From Parcubacteria group bacterium Gr01-1014_30 (GTDB lineage Bacteria > Patescibacteriota > Minisyncoccia > Minisyncoccales > 2-12-FULL-40-12), in the NCBI GenBank assembly GCA_007376185.1, contig VMFS01000007.1:1390-65389 (forward strand): a stretch of 64,000 nucleotides of DNA, given 5' to 3'. Positions within the stretch are counted from its first letter, which is position 1; each line of letters starts with the position of its first letter. The translations under genes and the position numbers were made by a program. Shown here piece after piece: positions 12,845 to 56,856 of this stretch. The notes beneath the pieces are model-generated. The model had not been told where the DNA came from and did no database searches. It worked only from the letters and a program-made list of their open reading frames with translations.

Positions 12845-13029
12845 AAGCGTAGACGGAGAAAGGTCGATTAAAGCGACCCCACATCGGAAGGGGGTCGGGG
12901 AAACCATCCGGTTTCCCCGTGTAGGAAAACAGGTCGCAAAGCGACCGTTAGAAACCGAGGGTTTCTAAAGAGCGAGCCCGAGCGTAGCGAAGCGAGCGAG
13001 GGCGAGCGACCTGATTTAGTATTACCACT
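12845..13029 (+). ncRNA. candidate structured 5' leader RNA, copy 1 (unknown class)
   Basis: About 185 nt between a taaaat -10-like box and the downstream ATG. Homologous to 53568-53776, with a conserved core and a differing central hairpin. Confidence 0.45.
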
Positions 13030-15721: not shown

Positions 15722-16792
15722 ATGTTGCTGGAGCCATTTTTTGACCCGCTAAAGTCATACGAGGAAAACTGGGAAAAAGGTCCTTTTGGCGCTTTTGCCG
15801 ACGGAGAGGTTTTTGCGCCAGAAGGCGCGCCACATTTTGAAATTTTCGGCCGCAAAATACATACGCCCATCGGCATTCCGGCAGGGCCATTGCTCAACGC
15901 TAGGTTTATCAAGGCCGCCTTAGACAAAGGTTTTGATATGCCTATGCAAAAAACCCTCAGAACCAGAGCCAAAAAAGCGCATCCCTGGCCTAATGTTCTG
16001 CCGGTTTGCGTTGACGGGGATTTGACTTTGGAAAAAGCGGCGGGCCAATTGACGTTTAACAAGAGCTTTGCCGAACCCCTTTCAGTCACCAATTCTTTCG
16101 GCAACCCGTCTTACTCTCCCGACTTATGGCAGCCAGATTTGAAAGACGCGGTTGCTTGGGCCAAAGAAGGGCAGATGGTTGTGGCAAGCTGGGAAGGAAC
16201 TGACTGGGACAACAAAGGCGAGGCCGCTCTTATTGAGGACTGGAAGCTTGGCGCGCGGCTCTTGAAAGAAACAGGCGTGGGTATGATGGAAATGAATTTT
16301 AGCTGTCCCAACAAAGGCACCAGTAATTTGCTTTGCTATGACGTTGAAATGAGCCGCAAGATAGCCGAAGCCGTCAAACCGGAAACAAGCGGAATTCCTT
16401 TGGCCATAAAAATATCTTTTATGTCCGAGGATTACCTGCCGGAGTTTATTAAGGCGTTATCAGGCGTGGTTGACGCTTTTTCGGCAATCAACACTATTGC
16501 TGCAGAGGTTGTTGACGAGAATGGAAATCAGGCCCTGCCGGGGCAAGGCCGTTTGAGAAGCGGCATTTGCGGCTCATGCATAAAATGGGCTGGCCTTGAT
16601 ATGACAAAGCGTTTAAAAGAGTTAAGAGACGAGCTCGGAGCCAAATACACGATAATAAGTATGGGCGGAGTTATGACACCGGAGGACTACCAAGAGTACA
16701 GATCAGCCGGCGCCGACGTCGTGATGTCAGCCACCGGAGCAATGTGGAATCCTTACCTTGCTCAAGAGATTAAGCAGGCCGAGGTTGTGTAG
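15722..16792 (+). CDS. pyrD: dihydroorotate dehydrogenase-like flavoenzyme
   Basis: GIPAGPL, MEMNFSCPN and GGVMTPEDY. Clustered with pyrE/pyrF/prs. Confidence 0.7.
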   Translation: MLLEPFFDPLKSYEENWEKGPFGAFADGEVFAPEGAPHFEIFGRKIHTPIGIPAGPLLNARFIKAALDKGFDMPMQKTLRTRAKKAHPWPNVLPVCVDGDLTLEKAAGQLTFNKSFAEPLSVTNSFGNPSYSPDLWQPDLKDAVAWAKEGQMVVASWEGTDWDNKGEAALIEDWKLGARLLKETGVGMMEMNFSCPNKGTSNLLCYDVEMSRKIAEAVKPETSGIPLAIKISFMSEDYLPEFIKALSGVVDAFSAINTIAAEVVDENGNQALPGQGRLRSGICGSCIKWAGLDMTKRLKELRDELGAKYTIISMGGVMTPEDYQEYRSAGADVVMSATGAMWNPYLAQEIKQAEVV

Positions 16793-16819
16793 TTTCCCTC
16801 ATTTTGCTATAATTGAAAT

Positions 16820-17056
16820 ATGACTACTCAGACGGCAGAGAAAATTCAGAAAGCTCGCAGAGATATTGCCCGAGTTCTTGAGCGTTACCGCGTAACTCTT
16901 CCTGAAGTTATTGGTTCTGCTCGTTACTACGACGAAAAAGAAGACGAACGCTTTTGGCGTGAAATAGCGCCAACATATCGTAAGGTAAGAAAAGAAGTAT
17001 TCGCGGAGTTTTACCCTGACTTGGCAAAGAAAAATCGGAAAGGAAAAAACAAGTAG
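16820..17056 (+). CDS. putative antitoxin (MTTQ-type N-terminus)
   Basis: 78-aa ORF 3 nt upstream of the PIN gene. The N-terminus and promoter (ttttgctataat) are homologous to those of ORFs 30868 and 58335. Confidence 0.4.
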   Translation: MTTQTAEKIQKARRDIARVLERYRVTLPEVIGSARYYDEKEDERFWREIAPTYRKVRKEVFAEFYPDLAKKNRKGKNK

Positions 17057-17059
17057 GTC

Positions 17060-17479
17060 ATGCGGGTATTTCTTGATACCAGCTGTATCATTGCCGCCGT
17101 ACTCTCGCAAACTGGCGGTTCATTTCGTATCGTAAGCGAAGCCGAAGTTCGAGGCATTACCATTATCGTTTCAAGATACGTTATTCGTGAGGCAGAAAAG
17201 AACATTCTCTTAAAATATCCGGAGTGCGCAGAATCGTTATTGAATATTGCGTCGTCATTTACATTTGTAAGAGATCCCTCATTGCGTGATGTAAAACGTC
17301 TCAGTGAAGTTGTAGATAAAGACGATGCGCCTGTGCTCGGCGCCGCTCTTTTGTCGCGCGCGGACGCGCTTTTGACGCTTGATCACAGGGATTTCATTCA
17401 GAATATAAAAGTCCAAAAGTCATTCCCGTTACTTAAAATAATGACGCCGGGAGAATTTATCAAAGAATATTTTGTATGA
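17060..17479 (+). CDS. PIN-domain toxin
   Basis: MRVFLDTSCIIAAV N-terminal acidic motif, DAPVLGAAL and LLTLDHRDF. The stop overlaps the start of the Cys-rich paralog (ATGA). Confidence 0.7.
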   Translation: MRVFLDTSCIIAAVLSQTGGSFRIVSEAEVRGITIIVSRYVIREAEKNILLKYPECAESLLNIASSFTFVRDPSLRDVKRLSEVVDKDDAPVLGAALLSRADALLTLDHRDFIQNIKVQKSFPLLKIMTPGEFIKEYFV

Positions 17480-19260
17480 ACTCAGAGGCCAAAACCTGCC
17501 AAAACTGCAAAAACGAGTTCGTCATTGAACCCGAGGACTTTAATTTTTATGAGAAAATCAAAGTCCCGCCGCCCACGTGGTGCTGGAAATGCCGTGCTAT
17601 GCGGCGTATGGCATTTCGTAATATGCGCCACATGTACGTTAGGAACTGCGATGCCACCGGAAAGAAAATATACACTCTAATGCCTCCTGGCAGCCCAATG
17701 CCGGTTTACAGCGACGATTACTGGAGAAGCGACAAGTGGGACCCAATGGACTACGGCCGCGAGTACGATTTCTCACGCCCTTTTTTTGAGCAAATTCGTG
17801 AGCTTTACAATACAGTTCCGTGGGGAACTATGTGGTCGATGGAAAAGGTTAACAGTGATTTTAGCTTTACAGCTTATTCCAAAAACTGCTATTTATGTTT
17901 TGATTCAGGCTATATAGAAGACAGCGCCTACAGCGTGACTTTGCTCTACAGCAAAAATTGTTTTGACATCATAAACGTGAAGGATTGCGAGTTTTGTTAC
18001 TACTGCATAAATACCAGCCAATCTTACAAAACGTTTTTTTCCAGAAACTGCGCTTCATGCGTTGAGGTGTGGTTTAGCCAGGACTGCGTGGGGTGCAACA
18101 ACTGTTTCGGGTGCAGTGGCCTTAGAAACAAAAGCTACTGTATTTTTAACAAACAGTACGATAGAGAAACTTACAAGGCCAAGCTTACGGAAATGAAGCT
18201 TAATACTTGGTCTGGCATTCAGTCTGCCAGAAAGCTGGCTCAGGATTTTTGGAAAAAATCTCCCGTAAAGTACTTCCACGGTGTAAAAGCGCTGAGAAGC
18301 TCCGGTGACTACCTTTATAATTGCACAGAACTTATCAATTGTTTTTTCGCCGGTAATGCGCAAAACATGCGCCATTGCCAGAGTGTTATTTTTCCTCCCA
18401 ACAAAGACAGCATGGATATTACTTCTTGCGAGGGAACCGATCTTGCCTACGAAATTTTGGCTGGCGGCCATGGGGTGCACAAAACGCTTGGCTGTGCGGA
18501 ATGCGCCAATGTAAGCGATAGTGCTTATGCCATAAACTGCAGATTTGTCAGCACCGTATTCGGATGCGTGGCCGTAAAGAGCAAAAGCTACTGCATATTA
18601 AATAAGCAGTATAGCAAGGAAGAATACTTTGAGTTGCTGCCGAAAATTAGAAACCACATGGATGAAATGCCCTATGTTGACGTTAAAGGTCGTGAGTACA
18701 GATATGGAGATTTCTTCCCGTTTGATATGAGTCCTTTCGGGTACAGCCAAACGCAAGCTTTTGAGTATTTTCAGCTCAATGAGGAAGAGGCTAAAAAACA
18801 GGGACTGCGCTGGAGAGAGAAAGAAAAAAGAGATTATACAATAACGAAAAGAGCAAATGAGTTGCCAGATGACATTAACAGCGTTGATGATAAGGTTATG
18901 GAAGGGGTTATTGAATGCGCGCACTCGGCGGACAGTGCTCATATTGCCGGTTGCGACATAGATTGCGCAACAGCTTTTCGTATAACTAAGCAGGAACTGG
19001 ACTTTTATCGTAAGTTTGAGCTTCCTTTGCCAAGATTGTGTTTTAACTGCAGGCATGTTGATAGGGTACAGTGGCGCAACATCCCAGCACTATATCACCG
19101 TCGTTGTATGTGTTTGTCTGGACAAGGGAGCGGCTATAAAAACGTTGCAACCCATTTCCATGGACAAGACCCTTGCCCTAACGAGTTTCAAACGAGTTAT
19201 GCACCCGGCCGCCCCGAAATTGTGTACTGCGAAAAGTGTTACCAAGCCGAAGTAGTTTAA
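17476..19260 (+). CDS. cysteine-rich multi-zinc-ribbon protein, paralog 1 (function unknown)
   Basis: 594 aa with 37 Cys by my count. N-terminus CQNCKNEFVIEPEDFNFYEKIKVPPPTWCWKCR; C-terminus HFHGQDPCPNEFQTSYAPGRPEIVYCEKCYQAEVV. Confidence 0.8.
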   Translation: MNSEAKTCQNCKNEFVIEPEDFNFYEKIKVPPPTWCWKCRAMRRMAFRNMRHMYVRNCDATGKKIYTLMPPGSPMPVYSDDYWRSDKWDPMDYGREYDFSRPFFEQIRELYNTVPWGTMWSMEKVNSDFSFTAYSKNCYLCFDSGYIEDSAYSVTLLYSKNCFDIINVKDCEFCYYCINTSQSYKTFFSRNCASCVEVWFSQDCVGCNNCFGCSGLRNKSYCIFNKQYDRETYKAKLTEMKLNTWSGIQSARKLAQDFWKKSPVKYFHGVKALRSSGDYLYNCTELINCFFAGNAQNMRHCQSVIFPPNKDSMDITSCEGTDLAYEILAGGHGVHKTLGCAECANVSDSAYAINCRFVSTVFGCVAVKSKSYCILNKQYSKEEYFELLPKIRNHMDEMPYVDVKGREYRYGDFFPFDMSPFGYSQTQAFEYFQLNEEEAKKQGLRWREKEKRDYTITKRANELPDDINSVDDKVMEGVIECAHSADSAHIAGCDIDCATAFRITKQELDFYRKFELPLPRLCFNCRHVDRVQWRNIPALYHRRCMCLSGQGSGYKNVATHFHGQDPCPNEFQTSYAPGRPEIVYCEKCYQAEVV

Positions 19261-19285: not shown

Positions 19286-19332
19286 TTATGTATCACTATT
19301 TCGCCATGGTATTTTAGCGATATAATTTTAAC

Positions 19333-19373
19333 GGGGGCAGTTGTGCTAAGCCCGGCTTAGCACAACTGCCCCC
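19333..19373 (+). promoter_or_regulatory. 41-nt perfect palindrome in the predicted 5' leader of the MBL/ComEC-like gene
   Basis: gggggcagttgtgctaagcc-c-ggcttagcacaactgccccc, about 7 nt downstream of tataat (19321-19326) and 8 nt before ATG 19381. Confidence 0.45.
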
Positions 19374-25517: not shown

Positions 25518-25615
25518 GATGATTTCAAGGCGCGACGACGAGACGTATCAGGCGGTCAGCGATACGTCAAGGAGGAGCAACGCAGAAATCAACCATCGAG
25601 CGTTAGCGAAGATAA

Positions 25616-25646
25616 GGAAGAGATTTATCTCTTCCGACATTTTTTC
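25616..25646 (+). terminator. hairpin plus T6 tract
   Basis: ggaagagat-tt-atctcttcc, then gacatttttt. Lies inside the complex inverted-repeat region downstream of alaS. Confidence 0.45.
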
Positions 25647-28240: not shown

Positions 28241-28279
28241 TGGGCCTTTGGGCTAAGCCGGGCTTAGCCCAAAGGCCCA
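28241..28279 (+). promoter_or_regulatory. 39-nt palindrome upstream of paralog 2
   Basis: tgggcctttgggctaagcc-g-ggcttagcccaaaggccca. Shares the apical gctaagcc/ggcttagc core with 19333-19373 but has different outer stems. Confidence 0.45.
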
Positions 28280-28291
28280 CGTACATATTAT

Positions 28292-30121
28292 ATGATGGAA
28301 GAAACAAGGCAATGTCAAAATTGTCATCAGGAGTTCCGGATTGAACCCGACGATTTTGCTTTTTACGAGAAAATAAAGGTTCCGCCGCCGACTTTTTGCC
28401 CGGAATGCAGGATGCAGAGGCGCATGGCTTTTAGAAATGAGCGAACTCTCCACAAACGCAGCTGCGACCTTTGCCAAAAATCAGTTATAAGCGCTTACTC
28501 GGCAGAAGCGACATTTCCGGTGTATTGTTCTGAGTGTTGGTGGTCGGACAAATGGGACCCCTTTGAATATGGGCGTGAGTACGATTTTAACAAATCTTTT
28601 TTTCAGCAGTTCAAAGAACTTCAAGATAAAGTTCCGCGCCAGCACACCAACAACACTTCGCCGGCTACACTCATTAACAGCGAATATACGAACTGCGCGG
28701 GAGATTCAAAGAACTGTTACTTGATGTTCGGCGCCGGTTGGAACGAAGACATTCTTTACGCGCATTACACCAATCACTCCAAAAACTGCGTTGACACTCT
28801 ATATTGCCTAAACAGCGAGCTTTGCTACGAATGTTTTGACGTTGATCAGTGCTATAACGTGCGTTTTTCGCAAACCTGCCTGTGGTGTCGCGATTCAATG
28901 TTTCTATTTGACTGCCGCAACTGTTCAGATTGCATAGGGTGTGTGGGTTTGCGCAACAAAAAATATCATATTTTCAACAAGCCGTACACAAAATCAGAGT
29001 ACTTAAAAGAAAAAGAAAAGTTACAGTTGCACACAAGGCCTGGCCTTGAGCGTTTTCGTAAGGAATTCGAAGATAATCTTTATCTTAAATTGCCCCGGAA
29101 ATACTATCACGGTCAGATGAACCGGAACGTTTCGGGCGATTATATCTCAAATTCCGACAACACTCAAGGCTTTTACACAAAAAACGCCAAGGACTCCAAG
29201 TACTTGTTTTGGTGCATCAACGCCAAGGATGTTTATGACTACTTTGCCTGGGGAGATCTGGAACTATGCTACGAATGCGTTTCCGGCGGTTACAATATGT
29301 ACTTTTGTAAGTTTGTGCATACCGCCTGGGGCGATCTGAGAAACGTTGAATATTGCAGTTTGTGTTTTACATCTTCTGATATTTTGGGATGCATCGGCTT
29401 GCGAAGCAAGCAGTATTGTATTCTTAATAAAAAGTATTCCAAGGCAGAGTACGAAAAGTTGTTGTCGCAAATTAAAAAGCACATGGCAGAAATGCCTTAC
29501 CGAGACAGAAGGGGAATGCTTTACGCTTACGGCGAAAACTTCCCGATCGAACTGTCGCCTTTTCCTTATACTGACACCGTGGCTCAAGAGCACTTTCCAT
29601 TGACCAAATCTGAAATACAGAAAGCAGGATACATTTGGCATGAGCCGGTTCAAAGAAACTATGTTATTACAAAAAAACACGCAGAGTTACCAGATTCTAT
29701 AACTGAAGTTTCAGAGAGCATACTTGACGATGTTACTAGTTGCGAGCACGAAGGCACGTGTAATGAGCAATGTACCTTTGGTTTTAAAATCGTTCCGCAA
29801 GAACTGCAGTTTTATCAAAAAATAAACGTGCCTTTACCAAAACTGTGCCATAACTGTAGGCATTCTGGTCGGGTTAAACAAAGAAACCCTCTTAAGCTAT
29901 GGCACAGAAAGTGCACTTGTGCAGGTCAGACCTCTGCCAATGGCATTTACCAAAACACGGTCCAGCACTTCCACGGACAAGAACCCTGCCCCAACGAGTT
30001 TCAAACGAGTTATGCTCCACAGCGTCCGGAAATAGTATATTGTGAACGATGCTACCAGGCCGACCCCGACCGCCCCGAGATAGTTTACTGTGAAAAGTGC
30101 TACCAGGCAGAGGTGGTATAA
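28292..30121 (+). CDS. cysteine-rich multi-zinc-ribbon protein, paralog 2 (duplicated C-terminal motif)
   Basis: 609 aa. N-terminus CQNCHQEFRIEPDDFAFYEKIKVPPPTFCPECR. C-terminus reads ...RPEIVYCERCYQADPDRPEIVYCEKCYQAEVV, so the terminal motif occurs twice. Confidence 0.8.
   Translation: MMEETRQCQNCHQEFRIEPDDFAFYEKIKVPPPTFCPECRMQRRMAFRNERTLHKRSCDLCQKSVISAYSAEATFPVYCSECWWSDKWDPFEYGREYDFNKSFFQQFKELQDKVPRQHTNNTSPATLINSEYTNCAGDSKNCYLMFGAGWNEDILYAHYTNHSKNCVDTLYCLNSELCYECFDVDQCYNVRFSQTCLWCRDSMFLFDCRNCSDCIGCVGLRNKKYHIFNKPYTKSEYLKEKEKLQLHTRPGLERFRKEFEDNLYLKLPRKYYHGQMNRNVSGDYISNSDNTQGFYTKNAKDSKYLFWCINAKDVYDYFAWGDLELCYECVSGGYNMYFCKFVHTAWGDLRNVEYCSLCFTSSDILGCIGLRSKQYCILNKKYSKAEYEKLLSQIKKHMAEMPYRDRRGMLYAYGENFPIELSPFPYTDTVAQEHFPLTKSEIQKAGYIWHEPVQRNYVITKKHAELPDSITEVSESILDDVTSCEHEGTCNEQCTFGFKIVPQELQFYQKINVPLPKLCHNCRHSGRVKQRNPLKLWHRKCTCAGQTSANGIYQNTVQHFHGQEPCPNEFQTSYAPQRPEIVYCERCYQADPDRPEIVYCEKCYQAEVV
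29965..30063 (+). repeat. 99-nt block identical to 56694-56792
   Basis: gcacttccacggacaagaaccctgccccaacgagtttcaaacgagttatgctccacagcgtccggaaatagtatattgtgaacgatgctaccaggccga reads identically at both loci, while the flanking gene sequence differs. Confidence 0.85.
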
Positions 30122-30126
30122 ACTAC

Positions 30127-30441
30127 ATGAACGTTAAGTTCTTTGACAGTAAAACCGAACGATTTATTAAAATGCTGGACGCGCAAACCGTTGCGCGGAC
30201 ATTGCGTACAATCGATCTTCTGGAAATGTTTGGCCATAAACTCGGATTTCCCCACAGCAAAAAAGTTGAGCCGCGGATTTTTGAACTTCGGGTGCGCGGA
30301 AAACAAGAAGTGCGGATTTTCTACACTTTTCACGACGGCGAGGCGATTCTTTTACACGGTTTTATAAAGAAATCACAACGGCTTCCGAGGAAAGAAATTG
30401 AAGCCGCGCGGCGTACACTGAAAGTACTTGACAGCTCATAA
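30127..30441 (+). CDS. HigB/Gp49-like (RelE-fold) toxin
   Basis: Track ORF 30097-30441; likely start is ATG 30127 (MNVKFFDSKTERF). IFELRVRGKQEVRIFYTFHDGEAILLHGFIKKSQRLPRKEI. Confidence 0.65.
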   Translation: MNVKFFDSKTERFIKMLDAQTVARTLRTIDLLEMFGHKLGFPHSKKVEPRIFELRVRGKQEVRIFYTFHDGEAILLHGFIKKSQRLPRKEIEAARRTLKVLDSS

Positions 30442-30465
30442 CGTATACGTTATACTAACCGTGCT

Positions 30466-30744
30466 ATGAAAAGTTATACACAAGCGAAAAACCGCCTTCT
30501 CAAGAATCGCCGCGTCAAAAAGGCATATGAGGAACTGGGGCCCGAATTTGAAGTTATCGCGCTTCTTATCAAGATGCGGCTTCGCAAAAATATCAGCCAG
30601 AGAGCGCTTGCCGAACGCATGGGCACCAAGCAGTCGGCAATTTCTCGGCTTGAATCTGGGCAGTATAACCCGAGTCTGTCTTTTCTCTATAAAATTGCCC
30701 GCGCATTAAATGCGCAAGTGAAAATTTCCTTAGGCTCGAAGTAA
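30466..30744 (+). CDS. XRE-family HTH antitoxin (HigA-like)
   Basis: ISQRALAERMGTKQSAISRLESGQYNPSLSFLYKIARALN helix-turn-helix. Confidence 0.75.
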   Translation: MKSYTQAKNRLLKNRRVKKAYEELGPEFEVIALLIKMRLRKNISQRALAERMGTKQSAISRLESGQYNPSLSFLYKIARALNAQVKISLGSK

Positions 30745-30750
30745 AAAGTG

Positions 30751-30840
30751 AAATGCCCCAACGAGTTTGAGACCTCCTACGCGCCAGAGCGCCCTGAAAT
30801 CGTCTACTGCGAAAAGTGCTACCAAGCAGAAGTTGTATAG
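30751..30840 (+). pseudogene. 3'-terminal fragment of a Cys-rich family gene
   Basis: Translates to KCPNEFETSYAPERPEIVYCEKCYQAEVV*, with no upstream gene body. Lies directly after the higA-like stop. Confidence 0.75.
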
Positions 30841-30867
30841 TTTTGTTTATTTTGATATACTTTAAGT

Positions 30868-31056
30868 ATGACCACCCAGACCCTTATTAGAAAAATAAAT
30901 CAGCGTCAGAACTTGATTCTGGAAGAAATGCGTCAGCTTCAAACCAAAATAAAAATTCTTGGTTCTTTGAGACGTTTTGAGGACTTGGCTAAAAAAGGAA
31001 GGAAATTTGCCAAAGCAAAAGGCATAAAGCCGAGCGACGTACTCAAGAATGACTAG
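30868..31056 (+). CDS. putative antitoxin (MTTQ-type)
   Basis: MTTQTLIRKINQRQNL is homologous to MTTQMLIRKINREVST (58335). Preceded by tttgatatact. Confidence 0.4.
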   Translation: MTTQTLIRKINQRQNLILEEMRQLQTKIKILGSLRRFEDLAKKGRKFAKAKGIKPSDVLKND

Positions 31057-31273
31057 GGCTGTTTTGGACACTAACATTTTTATTTCGTCTCTCGTTGAAC
31101 TGCAAGAAAGCGTTCGCGCGGTTGCCAAAGACCCATCTGATAGTAAAATTATTGAGTGCGCCCTTGCCGGAAAGGCGTATTTTATTGTTTCCGGCGATAA
31201 ACATCTTCTTGACTTGCGGCAGTATCAAAAGATAAAGATCGTTACCCCAAACCAATTTCTTAAATACTTATGA
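31049..31273 (+). CDS. PIN-domain toxin, apparently internally truncated
   Basis: Only 74 aa. It has a PIN N-terminus (AVLDTNIFISSL) and C-terminus (YFIVSGDKHLL...IVTPNQFL) but lacks the middle part seen in the 139-144 aa PIN genes in this window. Confidence 0.45.
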   Translation: MTRAVLDTNIFISSLVELQESVRAVAKDPSDSKIIECALAGKAYFIVSGDKHLLDLRQYQKIKIVTPNQFLKYL

Positions 31274-31299
31274 ATCGTGAGACACAAAATTGCCAAAAA
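31270..31299 (+). pseudogene. 5'-terminal fragment of a Cys-rich family gene
   Basis: ATGA overlap with the PIN stop, as at 17476. Encodes MNRETQNCQK (compare MNPETRTCQNCK and MRETRNCQNCK); homology is then lost. Confidence 0.5.
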
Positions 31300-31346
31300 G
31301 AGGCAAGGGGATTGACCTTTATGAAACATTTTGCTAAAGTAAAAAA

Positions 31347-31571
31347 TTGCGGATTGTGAAAAAAGATTTTGTCAGAAAGTGGGGTATTGTTACTGAAACT
31401 TTGCCTAACGCCAACTTTAGGGTGCGGCTTGACGAGGGCAAAGAAGTGCTGTGCCATTTGGCGGGCAAGCTGAGGATTTACCGGATTAAGATTTTGCCCG
31501 GGGACAGGGTTCAGGTTGAGATGACCCCTTACGACGAAACAAGAGGAAGAATTGTGTATAGAGGAAAGTAG
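31347..31571 (+). CDS. infA: translation initiation factor IF-1
   Basis: [60 protein letters not shown]. Non-ATG start (ttg 31347 or gtg 31356). Confidence 0.9.
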
Positions 31572-43577: not shown

Positions 43578-43814
43578 ATGAACACCATTACTATCCCTAA
43601 AAAAATGAGCCGGAAAGGCGATTTGGTGGTTGTGCCTAGGATAGATTACGAACATATGCTTAAGATCAGCCAGCGGCTTTTGCGGGAGGAAAAAGACACG
43701 GACGAGGCGATTAGAGTTTTTGAAAGGGAAAGAAAGATCGGGAAGCTGAAGAGGTCTTCAAGCTTTTACGACATTCTCGTCGGAAGAGATAAATCTCTTC
43801 CTTATCTTCGCTAA
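43578..43814 (+). CDS. putative antitoxin
   Basis: 78-aa ORF 10 nt upstream of a RelE/YafQ-like gene remnant. Confidence 0.35.
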   Translation: MNTITIPKKMSRKGDLVVVPRIDYEHMLKISQRLLREEKDTDEAIRVFERERKIGKLKRSSSFYDILVGRDKSLPYLR

Positions 43815-43824
43815 CGCTAGATAG

Positions 43825-44086
43825 ATGAGGCGAATTTTATATTCTTCTAAGTTTAAGAAAAACTTGAAGAAGATGCCTGATTTTGTTAAGGAAGCTTTCC
43901 TTGAAAAGGAAAGTTTGTTTTTAAGCAACCCCTTTCACCCTTCCTTGGAGACGCATAAACTTCACGGGAAGTACAAAGAGTACTGGGCTTTTACGCTCCA
44001 TAGGTCAGTACAGAATTATGTTTAAGTTCATTGGTAAAGGAGATTTTGGTTTTATCAACGTAGGTACTCACGAAATCTATAAGTAA
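43825..44086 (+). pseudogene. RelE/YafQ-like toxin with a frameshift
   Basis: ORF 43825-44025 ends ...HGKYKEYWAFTLHRSVQNYV*. Shifting the frame by one nt near 43997 gives SIGQYRIMFKFIGKGDFGFINVGTHEIYK* (stop 44084-44086), the expected RelE-type C-terminus. Confidence 0.55.
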
Positions 44087-48736: not shown

Positions 48737-50086
48737 ATGTTTCACCAAGAAATCGTTGACATACTCTTGCAGGTTGCGACCAATTGGTGGTGGCTCATTT
48801 TGCCGCTTATTCTTTGGTTTCCCGCCGCCTTTTTTTACCTTTGGTGGCTGAGCTGGGAAGTTTGGTACCCCAAGTATAAATGGGTTGTTTTGGAAATAAA
48901 GCCGCCCAAAGAGATTCTAAAACCCTTCAGGGCTATGGAGGACATTTACTCGGGGCTTTGGGGCGTAATAGACACTCCAAACTGGCGGGAAAAGTGGTGC
49001 GAAGGGGAGGTTGAATTGGGCGGAGGCCTTTGGTTTTCTTTTGAGGTTGTTTCCCTTGGCGGAAACATCCACTTTTATCTAAGAATAAAAGAGGAGTTTC
49101 GCGATACAGCCGAGTCCGTGATTTACGCTCAGTATCCGGACGCGGAAATCACCGAAGTTGAGGACTACGCCAAAAACGTTCCCCAGGACCTGCCTAATAA
49201 AGACTGGAATTTGTACGCAGAAGATTATCAGTTCAGCAAGGAAGATCCTTACCCCATCAAGACCTACAGCAAGTTTTTTGAAGAAAGGCCTGAAGTCGCC
49301 AAAGAAGAAAAAAGGATTGATCCAATGGACGCCCTCTTGGAAGGCTTGAGCAAGGTAACTCCAGACGAACAGCTTTGGCTTCAAATCGGATGCATTCCGC
49401 TGCTTGACAGACTTATGCCGAAGCGTTGGATAACAAGGGGCAAAGAAATAAGGGATGAACTTGCCAAAAGACCAAAGGCCAAGAAGCCAAAACCAATGAT
49501 TGAAGAGGCCGTTGACGTTTTGCTTGTCGGTCCCTCAACAGAAAAGGAAGTTAAGGATCCCTTTGCGTCCGCGGTAGAGTTTCGTTTGACTCCCGGGGAA
49601 AAAGATACTTTGGCGGCAATTGAAAATAAAATATCAAAGCATGGTTACAGCTGCTGGATAAGAATGGTGCACATTTTTAAAGCCGACAAACCGCACTTGA
49701 GAGGCAGACAATACACAATGAGAAGCTACTTCCAGCAATTTATGACCGAGAGTTTGAATTCAATTAACTATCTTGGCGTTACAAGAACCAGAATACATTA
49801 CGTATTTCCTAAAAGGCGCCTTTTTATGAGAAAGCGAAGGCAGTTTAGAAATTACATTAAAAGGGTGCCCCCTTACTACCCTAAAATGACAGGAGAACCT
49901 TCTTCTTTTCTCAAGCTGGAACTGCTCGGCGAGTCAAAAGGCCCCGGTCTAGGAAAGGGCACAATGGTGCTGAACATTGAGGAACTTGCCACCATTTTTC
50001 ATTTTCCGACGAAAATCATTGTTCCCGGCGTTCCTTACGTTGAAGCTAAAAAAGCGGGTCCTCCTCAAGACTTGCCAACAGAATGA
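48737..50086 (+). CDS. membrane protein partner of the P-loop ATPase (unknown family)
   Basis: 449 aa. W-rich N-terminal TM hairpin (NWWWLILPLILWFPAAFFYLWWLSW), then a soluble domain. Its stop overlaps the ATPase start (ATGA). Confidence 0.5.
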   Translation: MFHQEIVDILLQVATNWWWLILPLILWFPAAFFYLWWLSWEVWYPKYKWVVLEIKPPKEILKPFRAMEDIYSGLWGVIDTPNWREKWCEGEVELGGGLWFSFEVVSLGGNIHFYLRIKEEFRDTAESVIYAQYPDAEITEVEDYAKNVPQDLPNKDWNLYAEDYQFSKEDPYPIKTYSKFFEERPEVAKEEKRIDPMDALLEGLSKVTPDEQLWLQIGCIPLLDRLMPKRWITRGKEIRDELAKRPKAKKPKPMIEEAVDVLLVGPSTEKEVKDPFASAVEFRLTPGEKDTLAAIENKISKHGYSCWIRMVHIFKADKPHLRGRQYTMRSYFQQFMTESLNSINYLGVTRTRIHYVFPKRRLFMRKRRQFRNYIKRVPPYYPKMTGEPSSFLKLELLGESKGPGLGKGTMVLNIEELATIFHFPTKIIVPGVPYVEAKKAGPPQDLPTE

Positions 50087-51846
50087 GCGAAATAACTTTT
50101 CTCGCCAAAACTAGTTTTAGGAAAAAGAACCAAAAGTTCGGCATCAAAAAATCCGACAGGCGCCAGCATGCTTACATTATCGGTAAAACCGGTGTGGGCA
50201 AAACCGCTCTTTTGAAAAACATGGCTTTGCAAGACATTCAAAGGGGCGAGGGAATTGCCATTATTGATCCTCACGGCGAGTTTGTTGAAGAAGTTCTGGA
50301 TTCAATACCTTCCAACAGGATAAACGACGTGGTCTACTTCAATCCGGCCGACCAGGAATACCCTGTCAGTTTTAACATTCTTGAGGTTCAAGAACCCGAG
50401 TATAAGCATTTGGTGGCTTCTGGTTTAATCGGCATTTTCACCAAGATTTGGGCAAATGTTTGGTCTGCTCGTATGGAGTATATTCTGTCAAACTGCATTT
50501 TGGCGCTCTTGGACACGCCGGGCACGACTCTGTTGGGAATACCGCGCATTCTGGTGGACCGCGACTACCGCCAGAGAATAATCAATAACTTGAAAGACCC
50601 GGTTGTAAAATCGTTTTGGGTTAACGAATACGAAGAATGGACCCCATCTTACCGCAACGAGGCTATAGCTCCGCTGCAAAATAAAGTCGGCCAATTTCTC
50701 AACGTTTCCTTAATAAGGAACATTGTGGGCCAGGCAAAAAGCACTATTGACATCCCAAAAATAATGAACGAGGGGAAAATCCTGCTGGTCAATGTTTCCA
50801 AAGGAAGGGTGGGGGAGGATAACTCTGCCATCTTGGGAGCTATGATCATCACCAAAGTACAGCTGGCCACCATGGAAAGAGTCAGGATTCCCGAAGAAAA
50901 GCGAAGAGATTTTTATCTTTACGTTGACGAGTTCCAGAATTTTGCCACCGACGCTTTTGTTAATATTCTGTCTGAAGCCAGAAAATATCGCTTAAACTTA
51001 ATCGTCGCCCACCAGTACATCGGCCAGTTAATCACCAGCAGTACCACGCACACCACGACAACGGTTAGGGATGCTGTTTTCGGCAACGTGGGAACGATGA
51101 TATGTTTTCGCGTGGGAGCGGCTGATGCCGAGTTTTTGGAACAGGAGTTTTTTCCCGAGTTCACGCAAAAAGACTTGGTCAATCTGCCAAACTACAATGT
51201 TTATCTAAAACTTATGATAGAGGGCGTTACTTCGAGGCCTTTTTCCGCTCAAACTCTTCCTCCTCCCAGCGTTGATAGCACAAAAAGCAGCCGCGAAAAA
51301 ATTATCAGGGTTTCCAGAGAACAGTATTCCAAAAAAAGAGCAGAGGTTGAGTCAAAAATCGCCACGTGGTCTGGAATCTTGGAGAAAACGCCCGAAGAAT
51401 CGCTTTTTTCAACGGCCGCCCAACCCGGAGTTTTATACGACGCCAAATGTTCTTCTTGCGGCAAATGGACGAAAACTGTTTTTAAACCGCAGGAAGGAAA
51501 ACCTGTTTATTGCAAGTCCTGCCTTAGGAAAATGGCGGCCGCAAAAGCCGGCGCTAAGGCTTCTGGTGCCACTCTGCCCGAAACAACTTTGGCGCAACCT
51601 TCGGCTTTGGGCGCTTTAGGAATTGAGTTTGGCACTTCACAGGCAGCTCCAAGGCCCACTTTTCAGCGTCAAGAAAAGAAAGTTGAGGAAAAAGAAATTT
51701 CCTATATTCCGCCCATGCCTACACCAAAGAAAAAAGAGAGAAAAGTTGTTAACCTGGAAGCGCTTCAAAAAACCTTGACCGAGGCCTTGGGAAAGTTCAA
51801 GAAGGAGCCGGAGCAAGAAGCTGACGCGGAAGAAAAAAGTAAATGA
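50083..51846 (+). CDS. TraD/VirD4- or HerA/FtsK-like P-loop ATPase with C-terminal zinc ribbon
   Basis: Walker A GKTGVGKT, Walker B LYVDEFQNF, RKYRLNLIVAHQYIGQL. C-terminal CSSCGKWTKTVFKPQEGKPVYCKSC and a low-complexity A/K/E tail. Confidence 0.7.
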   Translation: MSEITFLAKTSFRKKNQKFGIKKSDRRQHAYIIGKTGVGKTALLKNMALQDIQRGEGIAIIDPHGEFVEEVLDSIPSNRINDVVYFNPADQEYPVSFNILEVQEPEYKHLVASGLIGIFTKIWANVWSARMEYILSNCILALLDTPGTTLLGIPRILVDRDYRQRIINNLKDPVVKSFWVNEYEEWTPSYRNEAIAPLQNKVGQFLNVSLIRNIVGQAKSTIDIPKIMNEGKILLVNVSKGRVGEDNSAILGAMIITKVQLATMERVRIPEEKRRDFYLYVDEFQNFATDAFVNILSEARKYRLNLIVAHQYIGQLITSSTTHTTTTVRDAVFGNVGTMICFRVGAADAEFLEQEFFPEFTQKDLVNLPNYNVYLKLMIEGVTSRPFSAQTLPPPSVDSTKSSREKIIRVSREQYSKKRAEVESKIATWSGILEKTPEESLFSTAAQPGVLYDAKCSSCGKWTKTVFKPQEGKPVYCKSCLRKMAAAKAGAKASGATLPETTLAQPSALGALGIEFGTSQAAPRPTFQRQEKKVEEKEISYIPPMPTPKKKERKVVNLEALQKTLTEALGKFKKEPEQEADAEEKSK

Positions 51847-53546
51847 GCTCTGAAATCAAACTCTGCCAGAATTGTAAGAACGAGTTCACGATTGCACTGG
51901 AGGACTTTAACTTTTACGAGAAAATCAAGGTCCCGCCGCCTACCTTTTGTCCGAAATGCCGTTTTCAAAGACGGCTAGCGTTTTTCAACATTTTTAACCT
52001 TTATCAGCGAAAATGCGATTTTTGTAAAAACGAGATGATTTCAATATTTCCTGCCAACTCTCCTTATAAAATTTTTTGTCAAAAATGTTGGTGGTCTGAT
52101 AAATGGAGTTCTTTAGATTACGGTCGCGAGTACGATTTCTCGCAGCCGTTTTTTAAACAATTTAATGAGCTCTTACACGAGGTACCACTTATTGGTTTGG
52201 CGAATGACGCCACGAACGTAAATTCGCCATACAATAATATGTCCGGCCATCTCAAAAATTGTTATCTACTTTTCCATGCCGATTTTTCAGAGAATTCGGC
52301 TTACGGATTTCATATTAATCGCATGAATGATTGCCTGGACTCGTCAATTATGACTTCCTGTGAGTTATGTTACGACTCAATGCACGCTTATAAGTGTAGC
52401 CGTTGCGTAGGTTCAAGAAGTCAAGTTGTTAACTCTGTAGATTGTGCGTTTTTAAGAGACTCTTTTAATTGCCAGAGTTGTTTTGCTTCTGCAAATCTCC
52501 GGAATAAAAAATATTATATTTTCAACAAACCTCACAAAAAAGAAGATTATCTTGAAGAGATTAAAAAGTGGAACTTGGGTTCTTATAAAACTTATAAGGA
52601 AATTCAAAGATTGGCGGAAGAACATTGGAAAAAGTTTCCACCTAAACCTAATCAAGATGATTTTTCCGTAAACTCGATTGGAAGTTATGTGAACCAGGCT
52701 AAAAACTGTAAGCAGTGTTTTGAAGTTGTTGGGGCAGAAGATTCAAAATACCTCTTGATGTTATACGTCCCTCCGATTAAAGACTGTTATGATGTTTCGA
52801 GTTGGGGTAATAATATTTCTTTGTTTTATGAATGTTGCAATTGCGGAGAAAATTCATCCAGTCTGCGCTTTAGTTACGGTTCTGGGATAGATCTTTACGA
52901 CGCTGATTACTGTTACCAATCGCTCGGAGGCTCCAATCAATTTGGTTGCGTTTCAACGAGGAAGGGTGAGTATATGATTTTCAACAAACGCTATTCTAAA
53001 GAGGATTATGAGAAGTTAAGAGAAAAAATTATCGCTCATATGCAAGAAATGCCTTATACAGACAAGAAAGGCAGGGTGTATAAATACGGCGAGTTTTTTC
53101 CGCCGGAATTATCTCCTTTTGCTTACAACGAAACGCTGGCGCAAAACTTTTTTACCCTGAGCGAAGCCGAAGCTGAGTCGAAGGGTTTCCGCTGGCGAGA
53201 GCTGGAGAAAAAAGAATATCAGATTACTATGAAGGCCGCGGACTTGCCAGACCATATAAAGGATATCGGAGACGATATTTTGAAAGAGGTTATTTCCTGC
53301 CAAAAATGCGGCAGGGGTTACAAAATTATTCAAATGGAGCTTGATTTCTTGCGCAAAATGAATCTGCCTTTGTCGCGGGAGTGTCCTTTTTGCCGCATCA
53401 ACGATAAACTGGAGCTGTGGGTCAAAAACCTGCGGGTTTTTGACCGAGTTTGTTCAAAATGCGGCGCCCGTTTCCAAACGCACTATCCAAAAGAAGAGGT
53501 CTCGTATATTCTCTGCAAAAAGTGCTGGCTGGCAGAGTTTGTTTAG
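51843..53546 (+). CDS. cysteine-rich multi-zinc-ribbon protein, paralog 3 (divergent C-terminus)
   Basis: 567 aa. CQNCKNEFTIALEDFNFYEKIKVPPPTFCPKCR. Ends ...YILCKKCWLAEFV. The start overlaps the ATPase stop (ATGA). Confidence 0.8.
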   Translation: MSSEIKLCQNCKNEFTIALEDFNFYEKIKVPPPTFCPKCRFQRRLAFFNIFNLYQRKCDFCKNEMISIFPANSPYKIFCQKCWWSDKWSSLDYGREYDFSQPFFKQFNELLHEVPLIGLANDATNVNSPYNNMSGHLKNCYLLFHADFSENSAYGFHINRMNDCLDSSIMTSCELCYDSMHAYKCSRCVGSRSQVVNSVDCAFLRDSFNCQSCFASANLRNKKYYIFNKPHKKEDYLEEIKKWNLGSYKTYKEIQRLAEEHWKKFPPKPNQDDFSVNSIGSYVNQAKNCKQCFEVVGAEDSKYLLMLYVPPIKDCYDVSSWGNNISLFYECCNCGENSSSLRFSYGSGIDLYDADYCYQSLGGSNQFGCVSTRKGEYMIFNKRYSKEDYEKLREKIIAHMQEMPYTDKKGRVYKYGEFFPPELSPFAYNETLAQNFFTLSEAEAESKGFRWRELEKKEYQITMKAADLPDHIKDIGDDILKEVISCQKCGRGYKIIQMELDFLRKMNLPLSRECPFCRINDKLELWVKNLRVFDRVCSKCGARFQTHYPKEEVSYILCKKCWLAEFV

Positions 53547-53567: not shown

Positions 53568-53776
53568 GCAGGAATGAAGAGAAAGGTCGAGTTAGTCAAT
53601 ATAACACCAAAATACCCCACTTCGGAAGGGGGTCGGGGAAACCCACAGGTTTCCCCGTATAGGAAAACAGGCTTTCGCCGGAGGCGAAAACGCCAGAAAC
53701 CGAGGGTTTCTGGAGAGCGAGCCCGAGCGTAGCGAAGTGAGCGAGGGCGAGCGACCTAATTTGGTGTTACCACAAG
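53568..53776 (+). ncRNA. candidate structured 5' leader RNA, copy 2
   Basis: Preceded by the extended -10 tggtataat (53553-53561). Shares ccccacNtcggaagggggtcggggaaacc-NNNN-ggtttccccgtNtaggaaaacagg and agaaaccgagggtttct...gagcgagcccgagcgtagcgaagNgagcgagggcgagcgacct with 12845-13029. Confidence 0.5.
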
Positions 53777-54082: not shown

Positions 54083-54175
54083 CGTTTCTATGTCGTTAGA
54101 AATTGTTTATTGCGAGGCCTGTTATAACGCGGAGGTTGTTTGACTTCGGCATTATATTTTGGTAATATTTAGTAT

Positions 54176-54379
54176 ATGGCAAACAACAAGAAACAATTTG
54201 TCCATTACGACCCTGAAGCCGATGCGGTATCTATTTATATCGGCAAGGGGCGTGAAGAAGAGTTTATTGAGGTTGTTCCCAATGTTTCGCTTGAAATGGA
54301 CAAAAAAGGTGCAGTAATAGGGGTTGAGATATTAAATGCCTCAAAGGTGTTGCGGCCTTTTTTGCGCTCTTTCGGTTAA
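54176..54379 (+). CDS. DUF2283-like small protein
   Basis: YDPEADAVSIYIGKG...DKKGAVIGVEILNASK. Confidence 0.55.
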   Translation: MANNKKQFVHYDPEADAVSIYIGKGREEEFIEVVPNVSLEMDKKGAVIGVEILNASKVLRPFLRSFG

Positions 54380-54390
54380 AAATAAGATAT

Positions 54391-54591
54391 ATGGCGACAA
54401 TCACTTTACCTAAAACTGAATATGAAATCCTTGAGAGAAAAGCCGAACTTTATTCTCAACTTTTAGAAAAAGAAGAGAAAAGTTTTCCTGTTGAGATTTA
54501 CTCCCTACAAAGGATAAGGGAGTTTTTAAAGGGAGACAATTTGAGCATTAAGGATAAGAATAAAGTTAAAAGGATTCTCAAAAACAGGTGA
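54391..54591 (+). CDS. putative antitoxin
   Basis: 66-aa ORF whose stop overlaps the PIN start (4-nt overlap). Confidence 0.4.
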   Translation: MATITLPKTEYEILERKAELYSQLLEKEEKSFPVEIYSLQRIREFLKGDNLSIKDKNKVKRILKNR

Positions 54592-55022
54592 GATTACATC
54601 GCCTCTTTTTAGACGCTAATGTTTTCTTCGCCGCGGTAAAGTCGCAAAAAGGAGGCTCGCGGCTGATTTTAGATTTGGCCCAGCATGGAAAAATGAAAAT
54701 TGTAACAGTCAGGCACGCCCTGCGCGAGGCGGAAAGGAACATTGAGGATAAACTTGGCGAAAAGTATCTTTTGGAATATTATCGGATTATTAAAGAAAGC
54801 CGCGTTTCCGTTCAAGCCGTTGACAAGCTGAGTGAGGGAGCAATTTTAGAGTTAAAGAAAGTTATCGTGGAAAAAGATATTCCTATTATTGTCGGTGCGT
54901 TCCAGTCAGGATGTGAGTTTTTGATAACTCTGGACAGAAAACATCTGTTGGACAACGAAAGTTTAAGAAATTTTCCGTTCAAAGTGTTGACGCCAGGAGA
55001 ATTTATCCAAACTTATCTTTGA
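54588..55022 (+). CDS. PIN-domain toxin
   Basis: LFLDANVFFAAV, DIPIIVGAF, LITLDRKHL. Shares GGS+ and LTPGEFI motifs with the PIN at 17060. Its stop lies 1 nt before the paralog 4 ATG. Confidence 0.7.
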   Translation: MRLHRLFLDANVFFAAVKSQKGGSRLILDLAQHGKMKIVTVRHALREAERNIEDKLGEKYLLEYYRIIKESRVSVQAVDKLSEGAILELKKVIVEKDIPIIVGAFQSGCEFLITLDRKHLLDNESLRNFPFKVLTPGEFIQTYL

Positions 55023-55023
55023 T

Positions 55024-56856
55024 ATGAGAGAAACAAGAAACTGCCAAAATTGCAAACAAAACTTCGTTATAGAAGCCGAGGACTTTACTTTCTACGAAAA
55101 AATCAAGGTGCCGCCGCCGACGTGGTGCCCGGAGTGCCGGTTTAAGCGCAGAATGAGCTGGCGGAATGCTTGGCATTTGTTCAAGAAAACCGACGCTCTG
55201 ACAGGAGAAAAGATATTTTCTTTGTTTCCCGAAGAAAGTCCTATAAAAATTTACGAGCGCGATTATTGGTGGTCTGATAAATGGAACGCTGAGCAATACG
55301 GTCGTGATTTTGATTTTAGGAGAACTTTTTTTGAACAGTTTAGGGATTTGATGCATGAAGTTCCTTTTCCTGCGCACTCCGTGATAGATCTTTCAAATTG
55401 CCAGTATTGCACAAACGCGAATAACATGAAAAACTGTTATCTTGTCCGCGCCGCCGCTAACACGGAGGATTCAGCTTATCTCATATGGGATAACGGTTCA
55501 AAACGATGCATGGACAGTCATATGACCGAGCAATGCGAGATGAGTTACGGTAATGTAAATGCGACGCGGTGCTTCAAGACGCTTTTTTGCTCTGACTGCG
55601 AGGACTGCGTAGAGACAATACTTTGTAAAGATTGCGTAGGTTGCTCAAATTGTTTTGGCTGCGTTGGTTTGCGAAACAAATCCTATCATTTTTTCAACGA
55701 GCGGTTGTCAAAAGAGGATTACGTCAGAAAACTTACAGAGCTAAATCTTGGCTCTGCGCAATCATTCAGCAAAGCAGAAATAAGGGCACGCGATTTTTGG
55801 CTTAAGTTCCCTAGAAAGTACCTTCACGGCAGGCAAAATGTTGATGTTAGCGGTGACTACATATACGAATCAAAAAACGCCAAGCAGTGTTATCGCGTTT
55901 TTCGGTGCGAGGACGTCAAGTTCTGCCAGAACATTCTGGATGGGCCAGTCAAGGACTGTTATGACTACTCCAACTGGGGCGACAACAACGAGCTGCTGTA
56001 CGAATGCCTTATATGCGGAAAAGGAAGTTCAAGAGTTAAATTTTGCGCTCAATGCTATTTGAACGATCGAGATTTGGAATACTGCATTTTCTGCCATGAT
56101 TCGTCAGATCTTTTCGGCTGCGTTGGTTTGCGAAACAAGCAGTATTGTATTTTAAACAAACAATATAGCAAAAATGATTATAGAGAGTTGGTATCAAAAA
56201 TCAAAAAACACATGACCGATTTGCCTTACCGCGACCGCGCTGGAAATGTGTTCGCTTATGGGGAATTTTTCCCACCCGAATTATCGCCGTTTCCTTATCA
56301 AGTGACCGAGGCCTACGAGCCTTTTCCGATGACTAATGAAGATGCAGCACAAAGAGGATTCAGTGCTTACGATGTCAAAAGAGAGGAGCATAATTTCACA
56401 CTGCCGGCCGCAGACATACCAGACCACATTCGCGAAGCTCAAGATACAATCACCGATGGAGTTATCGGCTGCCAGCATGATGGGAAATGCGCTCAAGAGT
56501 GTACAAAAGCATTTCGCATCATCAAAGAAGAGTTGGAGTTCTGCAGACGGCTTAGCATACCTCTGCCCCGCCTCTGCCCCAATTGTCGGCATTATGAGCG
56601 TTTGGCTTTCAGGAATTCTCCGAGGTTCTTCAACCGCGTGTGCGGCTGCGCCGGTAAAGAATCCCAAAACGGCGTATATCAGAACACCGCTTCGCACTTC
56701 CACGGACAAGAACCCTGCCCCAACGAGTTTCAAACGAGTTATGCTCCACAGCGTCCGGAAATAGTATATTGTGAACGATGCTACCAGGCCGAGCCGAGGT
56801 TGCGTAAAAAATGTAGGATGAAATATGGCTCCGCAAGTAAGAATTCGCAGATTTAA
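55024..56856 (+). CDS. cysteine-rich multi-zinc-ribbon protein, paralog 4 (C-terminal end replaced)
   Basis: 610 aa. CQNCKQNFVIEAEDFTFYEKIKVPPPTWCPECR. The C-terminus ...RPEIVYCERCYQAE then runs on as PRLRKKCRMKYGSASKNSQI instead of ending with VV-stop. Confidence 0.8.
   Translation: MRETRNCQNCKQNFVIEAEDFTFYEKIKVPPPTWCPECRFKRRMSWRNAWHLFKKTDALTGEKIFSLFPEESPIKIYERDYWWSDKWNAEQYGRDFDFRRTFFEQFRDLMHEVPFPAHSVIDLSNCQYCTNANNMKNCYLVRAAANTEDSAYLIWDNGSKRCMDSHMTEQCEMSYGNVNATRCFKTLFCSDCEDCVETILCKDCVGCSNCFGCVGLRNKSYHFFNERLSKEDYVRKLTELNLGSAQSFSKAEIRARDFWLKFPRKYLHGRQNVDVSGDYIYESKNAKQCYRVFRCEDVKFCQNILDGPVKDCYDYSNWGDNNELLYECLICGKGSSRVKFCAQCYLNDRDLEYCIFCHDSSDLFGCVGLRNKQYCILNKQYSKNDYRELVSKIKKHMTDLPYRDRAGNVFAYGEFFPPELSPFPYQVTEAYEPFPMTNEDAAQRGFSAYDVKREEHNFTLPAADIPDHIREAQDTITDGVIGCQHDGKCAQECTKAFRIIKEELEFCRRLSIPLPRLCPNCRHYERLAFRNSPRFFNRVCGCAGKESQNGVYQNTASHFHGQEPCPNEFQTSYAPQRPEIVYCERCYQAEPRLRKKCRMKYGSASKNSQI
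56694..56792 (+). repeat. 99-nt block identical to 29965-30063
   Basis: Same sequence as at 29965-30063. Identity ends at the CYQA codons, exactly where both loci show rearrangement junctions. Confidence 0.85.

Follow-up and report, generated by a model that had tools for sequence, protein, structure and literature searches.

Ectopic gene conversion between members of multigene families is exemplified by tufA/tufB and by pilE/pilS of Neisseria. Genomic islands integrate into the 3' ends of tRNA and tmRNA genes and restore them. Toxin-antitoxin (TA) loci stabilise the cassette arrays of the Vibrio superintegron, according to what PMC5543033 cites from Szekeres et al. (2007), and local assembly errors have been described in metagenome-assembled genomes (MAGs), including in a repeat-containing gene of a Candidate Phyla Radiation (CPR) genome (Chen et al. 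2020; PMC7111523). These four cases are compared here with a locus from Parcubacteria group bacterium Gr01-1014_30 (GCA_007376185.1), found in a stretch of 64,000 nt of contig VMFS01000007.1, hereafter the window. The window codes for five paralogs (p1 to p5) of a Cys-rich protein of ~590 amino acids, all on the + strand, and the locus comprises the 3' end of p2 with the TA genes and gene fragments that follow it. An earlier note had read this 3' end as a rearrangement site with a tripled terminal motif. It is probable that three layers are superimposed there instead: an assembly artefact, gene conversion with displacement of a gene end, and erosion of an array of paralogs.

The paralogs are localized at 17476-19260 (p1), 28292-30121 (p2), 51843-53546 (p3), 55024-56856 (p4) and 58830-60587 (p5). 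Their products share 40-49% identity in pairwise comparisons, and 47% in the case of p2 and p4, in agreement with the earlier description of these two genes as otherwise diverged. Searches against Pfam and NCBIfam recognised no domain in the Cys-rich paralogs, and the terminal motif gave sub-threshold Pfam hints alone, to the 'treble clef' zinc-finger families zf_Tbcl and zf_Tbcl_2. All features listed in the earlier note are present in the window, among them a 99-nt block of p2 (29965-30063) that is exactly repeated in p4 (56694-56792) with a mismatch on each flank.

The region is also covered by contigs of two independent assemblies that represent the same genotype, ENA ERZ27284378 (MEGAHIT-style contig names, k139) and Logan SRR8863434. 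They were found by exact look-up of the HigB protein, the upstream 429-aa protein, the T4CP-like protein and the PIN protein, while exact look-up of the p2 protein in its window version matched no record. The ENA contigs show zero true differences to the window over the ~28.2 kb compared, except after positions 30063 and 56792, and the Logan contigs likewise match the window at all compared bases off these two junctions. At the junctions the ENA k139 and Logan contigs are consistent with each other and both differ from the window, as they carry 64 additional nt after 30063 and 107 additional nt after 56792. The repeat shared by the p2 and p4 loci, designated R, is 163 nt long in the independent contigs. 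The window holds R positions 1-99 at both loci.

The 64 nt absent at the p2 junction (30063/30064) correspond to R positions 100-163. First comes GAAGTAGTATAG with the stop codon, then a 15-nt spacer and the hairpin CCCGCCCTTTCGCAAAAGGGCGGG, and last the beginning of an additional copy of the gene end, termed stub A. At p4 the junction 56792/56793 lacks 107 nt and yields a non-family tail, EPRLRKKCRMKYGSASKNSQI followed by a stop codon, together with a doubled GCCGA. This tail is formed by the last 21 residues (56792-56856) and overlaps the T4CP-like gene. Both junctions are blunt and lie inside the exact 163-nt repeat, each at repeat position 99, with the p2 join restarting at the first base past R and the p4 join 43 nt further, where it generates GCCGAGCCGA.

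The independent contigs give a different end to both genes. There p2 spans 28292-30063 plus 12 nt and terminates ...CERCYQAEVV at a TAG codon, followed by the 15 nt, the hairpin and then stub A as a separate out-of-frame segment. The p4 gene shares this end and the hairpin, after which comes a second stub, A', positioned just upstream of the T4CP-like gene. The p2 and p4 proteins have 609 and 610 aa in the window and 593 and 592 aa in the independent contigs, where both end ...CYQAEVV. The shorter forms have the organization of the family: 233 of the 240 closest p2 and p4 homologues stop exactly 5 residues past the last CxxC[YWF], and none of the 240 has a second motif copy or an extended tail. 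An overlap of exactly 139 nt is found between the four ENA contig ends, as is typical of a two-in, two-out repeat node at k = 139, and the Logan contigs end at these boundaries of the repeat as well. One 26.9-kb contig extends from the p2 repeat to the p4 repeat and the window gene order is thus the only linear path through these contigs.

The window junctions at 30063 and 56792 are very likely an assembly artefact, as judged from these contigs. The 163-nt exact repeat would have collapsed to its first 99 nt at both copies, a collapse that would fuse p2 in frame to the downstream stub and frameshift the tail of p4. A k-mer size of 99 is in common use among assemblers. The artefact is favoured because two natural deletions with a common left breakpoint and no other difference over 28 kb are unlikely, and because the 240 homologues lack such ends. 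One observation weighs against it: the p4 join restarts 43 nt past R, an offset not accounted for by a simple k-overlap error, and a third copy of the repeat that might explain this junction was not found in the window. The case is similar to the repeat errors reported for MAGs (PMC7111523) in that a perfect repeat lies within CPR protein-coding genes and the consensus is contradicted by other assemblies. It differs from them in that the error is deduced here from independent contigs rather than from read support.

If the window were correct, it would represent a strain in which 64 nt at p2 and 107 nt at p4 have really been deleted, the former deletion fusing p2 to the stub. The fusion is indeed in frame and retains a complete terminal motif. 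Furthermore, De Bruijn assemblers seldom invent sequence, and the 43 extra nt absent at p4 are not part of the repeat. However, two independent events would have to share their left breakpoint at repeat position 99 in a sequence that has zero single-nucleotide polymorphisms relative to the other assemblies over ~28 kb. The p4 version ruins a conserved end and overlaps the next gene, with no homologue having such a tail, and a scan of JGI metagenomes with a 25-mer from the repeat found no contig, thus giving no independent support to the fused version. Such a strain is quite improbable. Under the artefact reading the models of the p2 (609 aa) and p4 (610 aa) proteins in this genome are wrong. 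An error at a repeat yields here a sequence that looks like biology, which calls for caution when raw MAG sequence is interpreted.

These data modify the earlier description in several respects. The doubled terminal motif of p2 does exist in the window sequence but it is absent from the independent contigs, being created by the 30063/30064 junction. The motif is therefore not tripled by a single rearrangement inside and behind p2, as the in-gene doubling stems from a junction that the contigs contradict. In these contigs identity between the two loci does not end at the CYQA codons, as had been proposed, but continues to 163 nt. Chimeric joins at a shared repeat, which the earlier note had envisaged as a possible misassembly signature, are found at contig level for 30063 and 56792 and not for ~30121, 30745 and 30840. 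The independent assemblies contain identical TA cassettes and orphan fragments (3' and 5'), and these features are real.

The second layer concerns the identity of the repeat itself, as the p2 and p4 loci are identical at 163 of 163 nt within genes whose overall protein identity is 47%. The tract begins at the HFHG codons, takes in the last 111 nt of the gene including the stop codon, then the spacer and the hairpin, and extends 14 nt into the stub. Its right-hand end lies at the ETSYA codons of the stub and both ends are thus in coding sequence conserved in the family. Beyond the tract stubs A and A' are 82% identical, with 8 synonymous and 3 non-synonymous codon differences. Part of stub A is found in the window at 30064-30121 (+); its full form is ETSYAPDRPEIVYCEKCYQAEVV followed by a stop codon. 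It ends 5 nt before higB, and the sequence GAGGTGG in its last codons is 10 nt upstream of the higB ATG. The last 15 nt of stub A' are at 56793-56807 (+), its full form being ETSYAPDRPEIVYCEQCYLAEVA with a stop codon, and the T4CP-like gene follows at 56825-58300. The hairpin has no other occurrence in the window or in the loci examined. It is GC-rich, is not unusually stable when compared to shuffled sequence (z = -0.8) and is not followed by a T-run. With this ordinary stability and no T-run, it is not claimed to be a proven terminator.

Perfect identity over 163 nt in genes that are 47% identical marks the tract as the product of gene conversion or of an equivalent ectopic exchange. The earlier proposal that the conserved 3' end underwent recombination or gene conversion is supported, with a tract of 163 nt and not of 99 nt. 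One locus would have been copied onto the other by ectopic conversion, with the conserved terminal codons providing homology on both sides. The copied segment would run from the 3' end across the stop codon and the hairpin to nucleotide 14 of the stub, which starts at ETSYAP. At p4 the native end would have been pushed downstream, where it still abuts the T4CP-like gene. Stub A' is probably this native p4 end, displaced when the 3' end, stop and hairpin were copied in, because it outmatches the present p4 end in comparisons with the nearest p4 homologues. These homologues (61-67% identical) end ...ETSYAPDRPEIVYCEQCYQAEVA, and stub A' fits their ends at 21-22 of 23 residues while the present p4 end fits at 18-19 of 23, in a small sample. 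At p2 the comparison is nearly even: the ends of p2 homologues fit stub A just marginally better than the present p2 end, and stub A may be either the native end of p2 or the remnant of a lost neighbour.

The p2/p4 tract resembles ectopic conversion in multigene families in being a short perfect tract with conserved borders in otherwise diverged paralogs. It differs from it in carrying a non-coding cargo (stop, spacer and hairpin), in that its right-hand homology arm is a displaced copy of the gene end, and in showing no sign of programmed variation. An alternative is that erosion alone is responsible: stubs A and A' would both be remnants of deleted downstream paralogs and the unit formed by gene end, hairpin and stub would have been homogenised later. 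Relatives do show tandem arrays and stubs of many sizes, and for p2 the homologues have ends that resemble stub A about as closely as they resemble the present end. Against this, A' fits the native ends of p4 orthologues better than the present p4 end does, and it abuts the T4CP-like gene, the place expected for the gene's own end. The order in contig P0123, which carries a p4 homologue, can be compared: PIN, p4-like gene, MNT/HepT TA pair, T4CP. A third argument comes from locus L064 (a Wolfebacteria MAG), whose p4-like gene is 51% identical and is also positioned downstream of CutA. Its spacer (ACAGAGTCGCAGTCCCG) is similar to that of the window (ACAAAGTGCAGTCCCG), its hairpin has a different stem, and its stub starts at the same codon as in the window (KTSYAP...EVA, then stop) and is followed by a second mini-stub; p4 homologues closer than L064 lack such a stub. 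Erosion alone is thus an unlikely explanation, and conversion with displacement of the p4 end is preferred for this layer.

The third layer is the segment between stub A and infA. It starts with a TA pair whose earlier assignment is borne out by domain matches: a HigB/Gp49-like toxin at 30127-30441 (+; PF05973, E = 3e-22) and an HTH_3 (XRE-type) antitoxin at 30466-30744 (+; PF01381, E = 2.5e-16). The pair has the layout of type II HigBA systems, in which the toxin gene comes first. Its two genes are 24 nt apart, and it is kept in most of 80 related loci. A strong promoter-like site (TTGACA, 17 nt, TATACT; 11/12 matches) is found at 30428-30456, inside the 3' end of higB and upstream of the antitoxin gene. 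The orphan 3' end that follows, stub B (30751-30840, +), reads KCPNEFETSYAPERPEIVYCEKCYQAEVV with a stop codon, as described before. It represents a remnant of a lost paralog and forms the upstream flank of an MTTQ-PIN module. The module is composed of a putative MTTQ antitoxin of 62 aa (30868-31056, +), homologous to the open reading frame (ORF) at 16820-17056, and a PIN_3 toxin of 74 aa (31049-31273, +). The latter had been noted as truncated; it is internally deleted, retaining the N-terminal tip and the C-terminal third only, is not a complete PIN domain, and its match is limited to positions 84-115 of the 115 in the PIN_3 profile. Complete PIN copies are present at 17060-17479 and 54588-55022.

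A 5' stub of another lost paralog, MNRETQNCQK, is present at 31270-31299 (+). The similarity is weak on its own (tblastn E = 1.4), while its position relative to the upstream PIN gene is the same as that of the p1 and p4 starts, with an ATG that overlaps the PIN stop codon as at p1. It adjoins a promoter-like site of infA (31312-31340, +), which together with infA (31347-31571, +) forms the right-hand border of the eroded segment. The intact counterpart of the module is found at 16775-17479 (+), with a family-like tail, a 27-nt spacer resembling 30841-30867, the MTTQ gene at 16820-17056 and the PIN gene at 17060-17479, whose 3' end overlaps the start of p1. The family-like tail at 16775-16792 is a mini-stub that was absent from the earlier note. 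The DHO_dh-like gene of this region (15722-17479) ends KQAEVV with a stop codon (CAGGCCGAGGTTGTGTAG), an end that resembles a family stub of 18 nt joined to the gene in frame. One more orphan 3' end, stub C (54099-54143, +; EIVYCEACYNAEVV and a stop codon), had not been reported either. It comes after a CutA1 gene and belongs to a variant of the module, being followed on the + strand by a DUF2283 gene (54176-54379), a putative antitoxin of 66 aa (54391-54591) and the intact PIN gene (54588-55022), which abuts the p4 start.

Stubs A and B, which flank HigBA, are 82% identical, with 11 synonymous and 1 non-synonymous codon differences. All other stub pairs are 65-82% identical. None of the stubs is a recent copy of an intact window gene, the differences to all intact copies being chiefly synonymous. 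The mostly synonymous differences imply that each stub diverged while it was part of a functional gene, which excludes a fresh target-site duplication. The simplest history compatible with these sequences would be an array ...X-HigBA-Y-MTTQ/PIN-Z-infA from which the bodies of the paralogs were deleted. The deletions would have left 3' stubs of 69-90 nt, a 30-nt 5' stub and the internally deleted PIN gene, and the TA cassettes would have survived, as would a handful of codons immediately before every downstream gene.

The persistence of the stubs might be explained by a second role of the last codons of the family (TGY TAY AAY GCN GAG GTG GTN stop). They may also act as an extended -10 box and a Shine-Dalgarno sequence, leading to selection for retention of the stubs: the Shine-Dalgarno sequence of the next gene, and sometimes its -10 box, would lie within them, and TA addiction would penalise deletions that reach these expression signals. 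Some observations are unfavourable to this history. The promoter scan listed no sites inside stubs A or B, the promoter and Shine-Dalgarno role being a reading of the sequence, and no sister genome with p2-infA synteny was found in the genome-contig scan, in which the best match was 62% identical. The nearest p2 homologues are found in different genomic contexts. A likeness to the TA loci of the Vibrio superintegron can be seen in TA pairs scattered in an array of direct repeats and persisting where their neighbours were deleted. The array differs from the superintegron by having no integron integrase and no attC site, by being made of paralogs of one chromosomal family, and in that the stabilising role of its TA pairs is a putative one.

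Insertion of the HigBA cassette with duplication of its target had been the other proposal for this segment, and a search for a recombinase had been suggested. In one version of it a site-specific recombinase would insert TA cassettes into the conserved 3' end and duplicate it, in the manner of integrons or tRNA islands. The serial orphan 3' ends behind the gene do recall islands stacked at an att site, and hairpins adjoin the stubs. However, the copies are 65-82% identical (82% for those flanking HigBA) and not identical direct repeats, and stub lengths vary between 5 and 29 codons. The window ORFs scanned with Pfam, which did not include all those of 150 aa or more, have housekeeping, TA or T4CP-like domains or give no match, and none is an integrase or transposase; the scan was confined to the window. 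Scans for tRNA genes and Rfam families found nothing in the window. In metagenomes the 80 closest HigB loci all lack family genes and stubs within 3 kb, and these HigB-centred loci give no support to a targeted insertion of HigBA into the family 3' end. The likeness to tRNA and tmRNA islands lies in the succession of functional gene end, inserted DNA and displaced old end, with possible serial stacking. It does not extend to the integrase, to identical repeats, to the size of the inserts (down to 40-130 nt here) or to the target, which is here protein-coding. Taken together these features leave a recombinase-driven origin with a very low probability.

The stubs could also be seen as silent cassettes or recoding targets that provide alternative C-termini by pilS-like conversion, frameshifting or ribosome hopping over the hairpin. 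They retain an open frame and the family motif, and in the window and in L064 the stub is in the +1 frame relative to the gene. Yet the terminal peptide is nearly invariant, so that switching would add no diversity, the apparent 'conservation' of stubs is partly a detection bias since the search demanded the motif, and locus L048 carries a decayed stub. Of all explanations considered this is the least probable. Two further candidates were discarded. A diversity-generating retroelement does not agree with the finding of no reverse transcriptase in the window and with differences that concentrate at third codon positions and affect each of the four bases. An integron cassette is rejected as no recombinase gene was found in the scanned window ORFs and there are no identical direct repeats. 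Erosion of an array of paralogs with retention of TA cassettes remains the preferred account of the segment downstream of p2.

The family has at least 7,978 proteins at E <= 1e-10 among the 8,000 candidates examined. All named ones are 'hypothetical', and the hits seen are from Patescibacteria only. Two or more copies in tandem are found in 47 of 77 related loci and most gaps between them are shorter than 130 nt. Wider gaps between paralogs contain HicAB (L039, L057, L053), AbiEii (L066), DUF2283 (L027, L072) or HigBA (L026), and that of L036 a nucleotidyltransferase. L026, from a Sungiibacteriota MAG, displays an intact, tightly packed arrangement paralog-HigB-HigA-paralog, with HigB and HigA 61% and 60% identical to those of the window. 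On the gene strand of related loci, a search for the motif of the last six residues plus stop identified 140 ends of full-length genes and 30 orphan ends, 13 of the latter in ORFs of less than 60 aa. Orphan ends were found neither on the opposite strand (806 kb) nor in control loci (322 kb), and most stubs are positioned 0-60 nt upstream of the next ORF. Known kinds of process (conversion, deletion and TA retention) are acting here in an uncharacterised family, and the locus documents turnover of this very large unnamed family through deletion to short stubs, retention of TA genes and 3'-end conversion. In L029 (10481-10747) a mini-gene of ~120 aa joins the family N-terminal domain straight to CYNAEVV and a stop codon, apparently as a chimera or after an internal deletion.

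ATPases of the VirD4/TraD-like coupling-protein type adjoin family genes in about 20 of the 77 related loci, and ComEC is a neighbour in L089. This adjacency suggests that the family is functionally connected with DNA uptake or transfer. In the window the ATPase regions are 50083-51846 and 56825-58300, and ATPase neighbours occur also among loci L010-L078, L087 and L089. One ATPase carries a zf_Tbcl_2 finger that resembles the terminal motif of the family.

A unit of stop codon, hairpin and stub recurs elsewhere. In other Patescibacteria one or two orphan copies of the last 7-23 family codons are found after the stop codon of a full-length gene, behind spacers that contain hairpins (L064 2628-2810; L051 6785-6934; L170 1708-1794 and 4345-4410; L010, L011, L027, L040, L045, L067 and L072). 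In about 10 other genomes short stubs begin at (E-x-)C-Y, behind one of two conserved kinds of spacer. The first kind has hairpins with an AGTCCCG foot and the second is TTTCAYCCTGAGCYTGTCGAAGGGCGA, found before differing downstream genes. The regular expression 'GTCCCG...CGGGAC' was dropped as a census tool, being too loose and too strict at once. It may be, although we regard this as a tentative idea that is rather less likely than its negation, that the gene 3' end, stop and hairpin form a small non-autonomous module that spreads among the family members of one genome and possibly between genomes. Such a module would move by homologous recombination through the conserved last codons of the family. 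Each arrival would displace the native end of the recipient gene, which would persist as a stub because it holds the Shine-Dalgarno sequence and -10 box of the next gene. The 163-nt p2/p4 tract, the L064 stub starting at the same codon (xTSYAP), the two spacer types and the serial stubs are consistent with this proposal. If the stubs carry such signals or if the module spreads, reduced genomes, with their supposed dependence on DNA uptake, would have a simple means of rewiring the 3' flanks of their genes through homology.

The window features additional repeats. An intergenic GC-rich element of ~155 nt with internal hairpins is present in two copies, 91-92% identical, at 12876-13028 and 53614-53773; one of them lies between p3 and CutA, and the element gave no Rfam match. 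Long near-perfect palindromes are found just downstream of p1 (19320-19371) and just upstream of the p2 start (28242-28293). They consist of GGGCCTTTGGGCTAAGCC GGGC TTAGCCCAAAGGCCC and a relative of it, and are 81% complementary to each other. Finally, an intergenic pair of 50-nt inverted repeats (25589-25638 and 43779-43828), 94% complementary, is separated by 18 kb.

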